From the IMG/VR virus record IMGVR_UViG_2534681774_000019, positions 1 through 21,213 of that record: a stretch of DNA of 21,213 nt, one strand, 5' to 3'. A program made the position numbers and the translations under genes. Source of the stretch: a virus (taxonomy: Duplodnaviria > Heunggongvirae > Uroviricota > Caudoviricetes). Below the pieces are notes generated by a model, which saw only the letters and a list, made by a program, of their open reading frames with translations, had not been told where the DNA came from and did not search any database. Position 1 is the first letter of the stretch, and every line of letters starts with the position of its first letter. Shown here piece by piece: positions 7,802-8,916 of the stretch.

Positions 7802-8505
7802 ACACCGCAATTTTTAACGGCAAAGCATCCATGACCAGCGTTGAGATCGCAGAGCTGGTGGGAAGCCGACCAGATAGTGTTAAGAGAACTATTGAAACAC
7901 TGGCTAAAAAGGGAATCATCCAATTTCCACAGACTGTGGAAATTGAGAATAAACAATCACTTGGGCCTCGCCGATTTTCTAGCGCGTATGTATTCGAAGG
8001 TGAACGAGGTAAGCGCGACAGCATCATTGTCGTCGCACAGCTCTGTCCTGAATTCACTGCTCGCCTGGTAGATCGCTGGCGCGAACTGGAAGAACAGATC
8101 CGTAAGCCAATGAGCGAAATCGAAATGGTTGCCGCGATGGCTCTTGAAGCCGTTCGCCAACAGAAACGGATCACTCAGGTGGAAGAAAAAGTCAGCCACG
8201 TTGCTGAAACAGTCGAGCAAATTAAAAAGGGCACTATTCGTGAGGGCTATGCCGGATATCGCCAACTGAAAGCAAAAACCGGTTTGTCAGATGATAAATG
8301 CCGCAATCTGGTGAACGCCTATCAAATTCCTACAGACACCCATGAGTTCATGACGCCGGACGGATTGTTGTCACGTCGCGCAATTGTTGCTGTGGAACCG
8401 TTTATGGCTGCTTTTTATCGGGTTATGGAGGAAGCAGAACCGCGAGGGACTCGCTGGTATCACCCGAAAATGGGGTTATTTCAGGTTATTGGTTGGCAGC
8501 GGTGA
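7798..8505 (+). CDS. Rha-family phage regulatory protein (paralog 1)
   Basis: ORF track 235 aa; RBS AGGAGA; N-terminal SMTSVEIAELVGSRPDSVKRTIETL resembles the Rha N-terminal motif. Confidence 0.6.
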   Translation: MNTAIFNGKASMTSVEIAELVGSRPDSVKRTIETLAKKGIIQFPQTVEIENKQSLGPRRFSSAYVFEGERGKRDSIIVVAQLCPEFTARLVDRWRELEEQIRKPMSEIEMVAAMALEAVRQQKRITQVEEKVSHVAETVEQIKKGTIREGYAGYRQLKAKTGLSDDKCRNLVNAYQIPTDTHEFMTPDGLLSRRAIVAVEPFMAAFYRVMEEAEPRGTRWYHPKMGLFQVIGWQR

Positions 8506-8529
8506 AAAAAAGCCGGGAGTAACCCGGCT
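8505..8529 (-). terminator. rho-independent terminator oriented for leftward transcription
   Basis: Perfect 7-bp stem AGCCGGG/CCCGGCT (8511..8517 / 8523..8529) with 5-nt loop; on the minus strand it is followed by a run of T (A-run 8505..8510 on plus). Confidence 0.45.
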
Positions 8530-8916
8530 CACTCAACATCAATAACGGGGAGCTGTTTCGCATAAAACGGCTCCGAAACATCCAAGAACAGTTCTAAAGA
8601 TATCAGCAGCTATATGATCATTTCAAGACCAAATATTGATTCTGCAATTCCGGGACGTTACACTGCTCAGGCACCTTATAAAGCGGGTGCCGGGCGTGGA
8701 AACCCGAAATTCAATATAGAGCACAACCGCGCTCATGCGGTTTTTTCGTGTCATGAGCATCGTTACGCCCAAATTATGGTGGGGCGTGCAGGGCCAACTT
8801 CGGTTGGGCCGGGTTCTATGTTGACCGGTATTTCCACCCCTGTACGTCTCACCACCTATATGGTCGTGGAAAGCCTTGGTGGTGAGTTCATTGAATTCAA
8901 CATAGGGGCTGTCACC

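Follow-up and report, generated by a model that had tools for sequence, protein, structure and literature searches.

Results

Organization of the locus

The DNA analyzed here, referred to as the window, is a 21,213-nucleotide (nt) stretch covering positions 1 to 21,213 of IMG/VR virus record IMGVR_UViG_2534681774_000019, and it is a lambdoid prophage. The element in question lies at 8505-8626 and consists of a predicted promoter and a predicted intrinsic terminator that both face left (minus strand); it is called the leftward unit below. The unit sits between the early regulator gene Rha1 and an isrK-C4-antirepressor module, and the tested stretch is 100% identical to the mlrA-adjacent prophage of Escherichia coli O111:H2 strain 12A. 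The initial annotation had described it as a candidate OOP-like antisense small RNA (sRNA) between two Rha genes. The genes around it are arranged as follows.

6806-7537, minus strand: cI-like repressor, S24/helix-turn-helix (HTH)
7574-7801: cro-like open reading frame (ORF)
7798..8505, plus strand: Rha1, Rha/Roi-like HTH regulator gene in the cII position (from the ORF list; TGA at 8503-8505)
Between Rha1 and the next annotated ORF: gap of 108 nt
8614-9468, plus strand: annotated 'Rha family' ORF, the "second Rha gene"
Right of the 8614-9468 ORF: small ORFs, then replication genes, with an O-like gene starting at 10173

Rha1 has weak Pfam matches to Phage_pRha/HTH_Crp_2. In RefSeq it is a 'Rha family transcriptional regulator', and it is labelled 'Roi' in PhiR49_2. 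Its TGA abuts the leftward unit, and the last base of that codon is the first base of the A-run at 8505-8511. The O-like gene is ~1.5 kb from the leftward promoter.

Promoter, terminator and predicted RNA of the leftward unit

A consensus scan of 20 kb was used to call promoter-like and terminator-like sites. The minus-strand terminator that the initial annotation had placed at the stop codon of the first Rha gene was found there (stem-loop 8530..8510, U7 tail 8511..8505). It consists of GAGCCGGGTTACTCCCGGCTT and TTTTTCACCG, which form 8 pairs, 6 of them G-C, around a loop of 5, followed by seven T. The scan also recovered, at the same coordinates, the minus-strand promoter proposed earlier, a sigma-70-type site with TTGAAA (8626..8621), an 18-nt spacer and a TG-extended TATCTT (8602..8597). 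This site spans 8626..8597 and lies ~65 nt upstream of the terminator stem, which gives a predicted minus-strand RNA of ~84-88 nt. The parts of the unit, in the order of leftward transcription, are listed here.

8621..8626, minus strand: -35 element TTGAAA (consensus scan)
8597..8605, minus strand: extended -10 element TGaTATCTT (consensus scan)
8589..8593, minus strand: predicted transcription start, placed by spacing 5-8 nt downstream of the -10
8577..8590, minus strand: conserved 5'-proximal block, RNA UGUUCUUGGAUGUU, with the core GUUCUUGGAU at 8580-8589; candidate seed
8549..8574, minus strand: internal hairpin 1, RNA GGAGC-C-GUUUU-AUGC-GAAAC-A-GCUCC
8531..8548, minus strand: A/U-rich linker, RNA CCGUUAUUGAUGUUGAGU
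8510..8530, minus strand: terminator stem-loop GAGCCGGG-UUACU-CCCGGCUU (consensus scan)
8505..8511, minus strand: terminator U7 tail (A7 run on the plus strand), 6 to 8 U in variants

The leftward terminator ranks second strongest among 39 terminator-like sites, and the leftward promoter is the sole TG-bearing site among 17 promoter-like sites. The promoter match alone proves little because promoter-like sites are not enriched as a class, with 17 observed against 22.8 expected. From the site density over the 20 kb, a given terminator is estimated to have a promoter-like site on its own strand, 60-130 nt upstream, with a probability of about 0.03. Folding of an 89-nt minus-strand RNA gave a 5' tail, a hairpin, the A/U-rich linker and the terminator, with an energy of -28.8 kcal/mol and a z score of -3.4. 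The ~85-nt leftward promoter-to-terminator unit claimed initially is present in the DNA and is kept in three alleles, and the RNA itself is a prediction. Measured from the predicted 5' end (8589-8593), the ATG at 8614 lies 21-25 nt to the right, and the isrK start 78-82 nt to the right.

A palindrome, ATGATCAT, with a GATC (Dam) site occupies 8612-8619, where it falls between the -35 and -10 of the leftward promoter and covers the annotated ATG; alleles B and C do not conserve it. The unit was also considered as a small-protein gene, and this was rejected: the sole minus-strand ORF (8581..8486, 31 amino acids) has no Shine-Dalgarno sequence and passes through the terminator with no stop inside the transcript.

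Distribution and divergence of the unit

A 171-nt stretch around the unit was used as the query to determine its distribution. The stretch was found in 262 of 5426 complete E. coli genomes, in 11 phage records (mostly Stx2a/Stx2d-converting phages), in ~80 IMG/VR contigs and in ~35 metagenome contigs. Carriers of the unit include Stx2a/Stx2d-converting phages, Shiga toxin-producing E. coli (STEC) of serogroups O157, O145, O111 and O103, and ST131; O145:H28 RM13516, O157:H7 PV15-279 and lysogens of PhiR49_2 or Stx2_EH2201 are named as candidate carriers. One metagenome match, L200, was discarded as a chance match within an unrelated coding region.

The ~125-bp unit occurs as three diverged alleles in E. 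coli prophages, viral contigs and gut metagenomes. Allele A is the type in the window, allele B is ~76% identical to it, and allele C occurs in some metagenome contigs as well as in L130 and L147. All three retain both promoter elements (the -35 and the TG-extended -10) at their 18-nt spacing, along with the terminator and the 5'-proximal block. In allele B the same scan independently calls TTGAAA-18-TATTTT with the TG, together with the terminator; in allele C both promoter and terminator are retained as judged by eye. The identities between alleles A and B are distributed as follows.

-35: 6/6 identical, and intact in all alleles
TG plus -10: 7/9 identical (TGaTATCTT vs TGgTATTTT)
Promoter spacer: 18 nt in both, with 7/15 non-TG bases different
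5'-proximal block: 14/15 identical
Hairpin 1: 8/27 columns identical
Linker: 14/19 identical
Terminator: 17/18 identical, with one pair gained by insertion

A 6-nt indel separates A from B between the -10 and the 5'-proximal block. The -10 region reads TGgTATTTT in both B and C, and the terminators of these two alleles have an extra U-A pair. The core GUUCUUGGAU is invariant across A, B and C. Hairpin 1 has three different sequences in the three alleles, and a hairpin is present in each; in allele C, where the third of these sequences occurs, the heptamer UUCUUGG is duplicated and the core is intact. The folds beat their shuffles in every allele, with z scores of -3.4 (A), -4.9 (B) and -4.1 (C). 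The A-to-B conservation profile is that of a putative leftward transcription unit. The -35 overlaps the annotated ORF on the other strand as TTTCAA, and its conservation is not attributable to that ORF because in its other contexts the ORF has unrelated codons (R-H-Q) at these positions.

The adjoining isrK-C4-antirepressor module

The right neighbour had been read as a plain Rha gene. This description gives way to a different one, as the 5' third of the gene contains an isrK-C4-antirepressor control module. Both isrK and C4 lie on the same strand as the annotated gene and within its first ~250 nt. The isrK-C4 arrangement is the P1 immI / Gifsy-1 isrK-anrP type of antirepressor control (PMC4825925).

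8636..8664, plus strand: probable isrK promoter read from the sequence, -35 TTGATT at 8636-8641, 17-nt spacer, -10 TACACT at 8659-8664, start at ~8671
8671..8747, plus strand: isrK-family RNA with its own terminator (Rfam RF01394, 61.6 bits, gathering score 50)
8772..8859, plus strand: member of the C4 antisense RNA family (Rfam RF01695, 82.4 bits, gathering score 45)

The leftward and isrK promoters stand divergently and back-to-back, with their -35 elements 9 bp apart and their starts ~81 bp apart. Every copy of the leftward unit has the 3' end of Rha1 on its left and the isrK promoter on its right. Similarity to ST64B, mEp460 and Stx2a_WGPS2 begins just upstream of the TTGATT-17-TACACT promoter, and upstream of it ST64B, mEp460 and WGPS2 carry coding sequence and no leftward unit. 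Deep homologues of Rha1 (Yersinia, Providencia, Proteus, Atlantibacter and others) have no intergenic unit, and their next gene is translationally coupled. Because the isrK module often occurs without the unit, and because the deep Rha1 homologues have no intergenic region, the unit is viewed as a small module of its own.

Several features of the module were recorded on the way. The 8614-9468 ORF is annotated as 'Rha family phage regulatory protein' or 'ash family', and its Pfam Phage_ASH match (amino acids 16-112) is the isrK-C4 stretch itself. In other phage contexts the start of this ORF has a good Shine-Dalgarno sequence (GGAGGTGCACCTATGATC), and an in-frame ATG at 8860 directly follows C4. 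The isrK-C4 stretch (8671-8859) may serve as RNA, as coding sequence or as both. Some prophages carry the isrK promoter-isrK-C4-ash module two or three times in tandem at a spacing of 656 nt; these are IMG/VR loci L030 (6500 and 7156), L031, L033 (three copies) and L098, and E. coli rows H15-H25.

Within isrK, the region 8700-8730 shows block variation in the second hairpin (CCGGGCGTGGAAACCCG, CCGGGGGTCGCAGCCCGG, CCGGGATTGGCGTCCTG) among otherwise near-identical loci, and the changes look compensatory. This pattern suggests that the variants could be specificity alleles, like P1 versus P7 c4. The isrK single strand UCAAUAUAGAGC (8713-8724) can pair along its full length, two G-U pairs included, with the second loop of C4, GUUCUAUGUUGA (8812-8823). 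The 5' block of the candidate RNA, GUUCUUGGAUGUU, resembles the second loop of C4 with a 3-nt insertion, which may be coincidence.

Relatives of the phiP27 type (L004, which is phiP27, L009 and L010) carry other leftward signals at this junction. An unrelated leftward terminator, GGCCGG-loop-CCGGCC plus TTTCTTATTT, lies at the stop codon of the Rha1 homologue (L004 2541-2561). At ~275 nt to the right of the terminator, the BRO-N antirepressor gene contains a leftward promoter-like site, TTGCCT-16-GATAAT (L004 2835-2862). Together the two would yield a sar-like antisense RNA over the start of the BRO-N antirepressor gene.

Discussion

A probable leftward sRNA gene and its strand

The leftward unit is probably a real leftward sRNA gene. 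As proposed here, 8505-8626 would be a self-contained gene for a ~85-nt leftward non-coding RNA, with its own sigma-70 extended -10 promoter and its own intrinsic terminator, placed like a 'moron' between Rha1 and the isrK-C4-antirepressor module. A search for repressor operators, in which the leftward promoter was compared with the cI-cro region, gave 7-mers only and no shared operator-like sequence, and therefore the RNA would probably be made in the lysogen. The strand assignment rests on the orientation of the promoter and the U-tract because folding and the hairpin 1 microvariants do not separate the strands.

For the function of such an RNA, the tentatively favored reading is a base-pairing Hfq-type sRNA that would use the invariant 5' block as its seed. 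The predicted build fits this class: the 5' block with its core GUUCUUGGAU is largely unpaired, and it is followed by a spacer hairpin, then a U-rich linker and a U7 terminator. The class features observed are the terminator tail (U6-U8 in variants), the linker CCGUUAUUGAUGUUGAGU and hairpin 1. A U-rich linker combined with a terminator of at least 7 U makes up an Hfq-binding module (Otaka 2011 and Ishikawa 2012, as cited in PMC4104026), and the candidate may depend on Hfq. The seed reading is favored because the 5' block is invariant, the hairpin has varied in sequence with its structure kept, and the U-rich linker and poly-U terminator are conserved. The 5' block would pair with a target, and the targets of such a seed would share AUCCAAGAAC-like sites. 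A conserved 5' block in a drifting body is typical of seed-type sRNAs and is unneeded for a purely cis-antisense RNA. The candidate RNA is also perfectly complementary to the untranslated spacer of early (pR-type) read-through from Rha1 into the antirepressor module, so a seed-type RNA could act in cis as well.

A number of observations weigh against this interpretation. There are three alleles only, with little variation within each, and covariation statistics are weak. Folding energy does not distinguish the two strands, and the wobble microvariants of hairpin 1 divide 2:2, with two of type A favoring the plus strand and two (a type B variant and L207) favoring the minus strand. The core GUUCUUGGAU is mostly unpaired in the allele A fold and is partly paired with the linker in B, in C and in the alifold consensus, where an RNAalifold helix joins the 5' block to the conserved linker; conservation of the block may stem from this pairing without any seed function, or from a plus-strand cause. 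When the seed was compared with the whole window on both strands, the best non-self duplex had -25.5 kcal/mol, within the shuffle minima of -22 to -30. Against the late-gene start regions of the prophage the best value was -16.4 kcal/mol, which 95 of 200 shuffles reached. An exact-sequence literature search gave no match. The Hfq-crosslinking sites EcOnc10 and EcOnc22 (about 85 nt; Hfq crosslinking and analysis of cDNA (CRAC) table of Tree 2014) lie in late/tail regions of Sakai prophages and are not the leftward unit, and carriage of the unit by Sakai is not established.

Other pairing partners were considered within the prophage. A 10-mer search for trans targets there returned nothing convincing. 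Pairing of the candidate RNA with isrK reached -46.7 kcal/mol, but 11 of 300 shuffles did so too and GC-rich stems account for the value; its pairing with C4 was no different from shuffles.

Weighing of the alternative explanations

Three other explanations account for the locus in different ways. One dispenses with a leftward RNA altogether: the hairpins would act in the rightward mRNA, as a 3' stabiliser or processing site of the Rha1 message, and the promoter match would be due to chance or owe its conservation to something else, for example the start region of the ash ORF. Both hairpins do form in plus-strand RNA as well (z score -2.7), the two type-A variants keep G-U pairs on the plus strand only, and the ATG at 8614, whose distance to the module is conserved, falls between the -35 and -10 elements. 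The A7-8 run in front of the hairpin would be useless to a rightward transcript, yet it is kept in every allele, and the plus strand has no U-tract after the hairpin. The terminator microvariant in L122 makes a U.G pair in minus-strand RNA and a C.A mismatch in plus-strand RNA, and it thus joins the type-B variant and L207 in keeping its pairing on the minus strand only. The -35, TG and -10 elements are conserved while the spacer between them diverges, and taken together these points leave this explanation improbable. A second possibility is that the terminator is an insulator only, which would shield the immunity/early region from stray leftward transcription arising at the divergent isrK promoter, with the RNA a functionless by-product. 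The occurrence of two unrelated leftward terminators at the same junction in different phage lineages favors such a role, as does the 9-bp distance between the -35 elements, which resembles other back-to-back promoter pairs. An extended -10, a structured body re-created three times and an invariant 5' block would be superfluous in a by-product, and an insulator as the sole function is very improbable.

The third alternative accepts the transcription unit and gives it no trans target: a purely cis-acting antisense RNA or a convergent transcription unit, analogous to OOP or P22 sar. Pairing with the Rha1-to-antirepressor spacer of read-through transcripts would lead to RNase III cleavage or decay, or the promoter would act through collision with rightward polymerases, and in either case leaky early transcription would be uncoupled from the antirepressor and replication genes. 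The RNA is necessarily a perfect complement of the 8505-8592 spacer. The unit directly precedes an antirepressor module, control by antisense RNA is classical for antirepressors (sar, c4, 24B_1; PMC12197685), and the unit is found exclusively fused to the isrK promoter. The different leftward terminator and promoter-like site of the phiP27 type suggest selection for leftward transcription that stops before Rha1. On the other side, the RNA would cover no ribosome-binding site or coding sequence; seen from its predicted start near 8590, the ATG at 8614 is 24 nt and the isrK start 81 nt to the right. The module's own promoter would leave its main transcript untouched, and a cis role gives no reason for an invariant block of 10-14 nt amid a drifting remainder. 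A purely cis-acting unit is considered somewhat unlikely but is a close rival of the seed-bearing Hfq-type sRNA, which is the tentatively preferred reading.

An extended form of the seed-type reading was also formulated. In it, the RNA would be expressed in the lysogen as a third RNA component of the antirepressor switch, its promoter coupled divergently to that of isrK/C4. Its seed GUUCUUGGAU would control a host mRNA or act as a sponge for a host sRNA and so link host physiology to the induction of Stx2a-converting and other carrier lambdoid prophages. This full scheme is unlikely as it stands. If the unit is expressed, about 4-5% of the complete E. coli genomes would carry an undescribed prophage sRNA. 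Because the unit adjoins an RNA-controlled antirepressor module able to trigger prophage induction, this sRNA could affect the stability of lysogens and the induction of toxin phages, or it could reprogramme host genes like other prophage sRNAs of enterohaemorrhagic E. coli (EHEC). For annotation, the neighbouring 'Rha/ash' ORF conceals two RNA genes.

Comparison with known prophage RNAs

Rfam searches covered the whole window at the gathering threshold and 8300-8800 at E <= 10, and on the minus strand they returned only terminator-driven noise. The best minus-strand match was sroD at 24.5 bits against a gathering score of 50, and it was driven by the terminator. The sar model (RF00262) gave no match at E <= 10 on either strand of 8300-8800. 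Lambda's own oop region gives no match in Rfam, which has no OOP model, so homology to OOP was tested by direct alignment alone. The local alignment scored 16 against 13.4 +/- 2.1 for shuffles, 81 of 500 shuffles reached 16, and the terminator tail alone aligned; homology to OOP was rejected. A review of phage sRNAs (PMC12197685) lists no RNA at this position.

The comparison of the unit with lambda OOP, made in the initial annotation, holds in part. Like the candidate, OOP (77 nt, promoter pO) is short, is read leftward and has a promoter and an intrinsic terminator of its own, and the candidate transcript is likewise predicted downstream of a gene in the cII position, in the order cI-like, cro-like, Rha1, unit. 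The likeness in direction, size and place stands, whereas homology, an identical mechanism, a cII-type coding overlap and adjacency to a replication gene are not supported. OOP overlaps the cII coding sequence by 55 nt (computed), whereas the candidate touches Rha1 at the stop codon only, an overlap of at most 3 nt, so the earlier description of the RNA as antisense to a coding 3' region does not apply. Lambda pO abuts replication gene O and the candidate promoter abuts the isrK/C4 antirepressor module, and the upstream gene here is a Rha/Roi-type regulator and not CII.

P22 sar (68/69 nt), an antisense regulator of ant, shares with the candidate its leftward direction, its intercistronic place before an antirepressor gene and its end at the end of the upstream gene. 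Unlike sar, which covers the ant ribosome-binding site, the candidate would have its 5' end upstream of both the annotated start and the isrK promoter. P1/P7 c4 RNA and Gifsy-1 IsrK are related by neighbourhood, in that members of their families lie directly beside the candidate and RNA regulators are clustered at one antirepressor locus. The candidate differs from them in lying on the opposite strand and outside both transcripts, and it matches neither model. The leftward unit is absent from P1, Gifsy-1, ST64B, mEp460 and WGPS2, where the module begins at the isrK promoter.

The Hfq-dependent 'moron' sRNAs AgvB and AsxR of EHEC prophages (Tree et al. 2014, PMC4104026) and lambda PreS are built, like the candidate, as stand-alone promoter-sRNA-terminator cassettes between phage modules. 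They share with it a poly-U terminator and a short 5' region, which is functional in those RNAs and known for the candidate from its sequence. Their positions differ, since AgvB and AsxR lie downstream of PR' and PreS lies in the pL region. AgvB and AsxR have variable 5' ends and conserved 3' bodies, whereas the candidate has a conserved 5' block and a variable middle. Elsewhere in the window, at 17368-17912, three tRNA genes (17368-17614) precede an STnc100-family RNA (17693-17883, 137.7 bits), beside which lies a strong convergent minus-strand terminator (17912..17891); this arrangement resembles the convergent sRNA pairs of lambdoid 'moron' sites (Tree et al. 2014).

Across these comparisons the leftward unit is analogous to OOP and sar in position and belongs to neither, and it is a probable new, unannotated prophage sRNA. 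On this reading, the lambdoid 'OOP position' can be occupied by non-homologous leftward RNAs.

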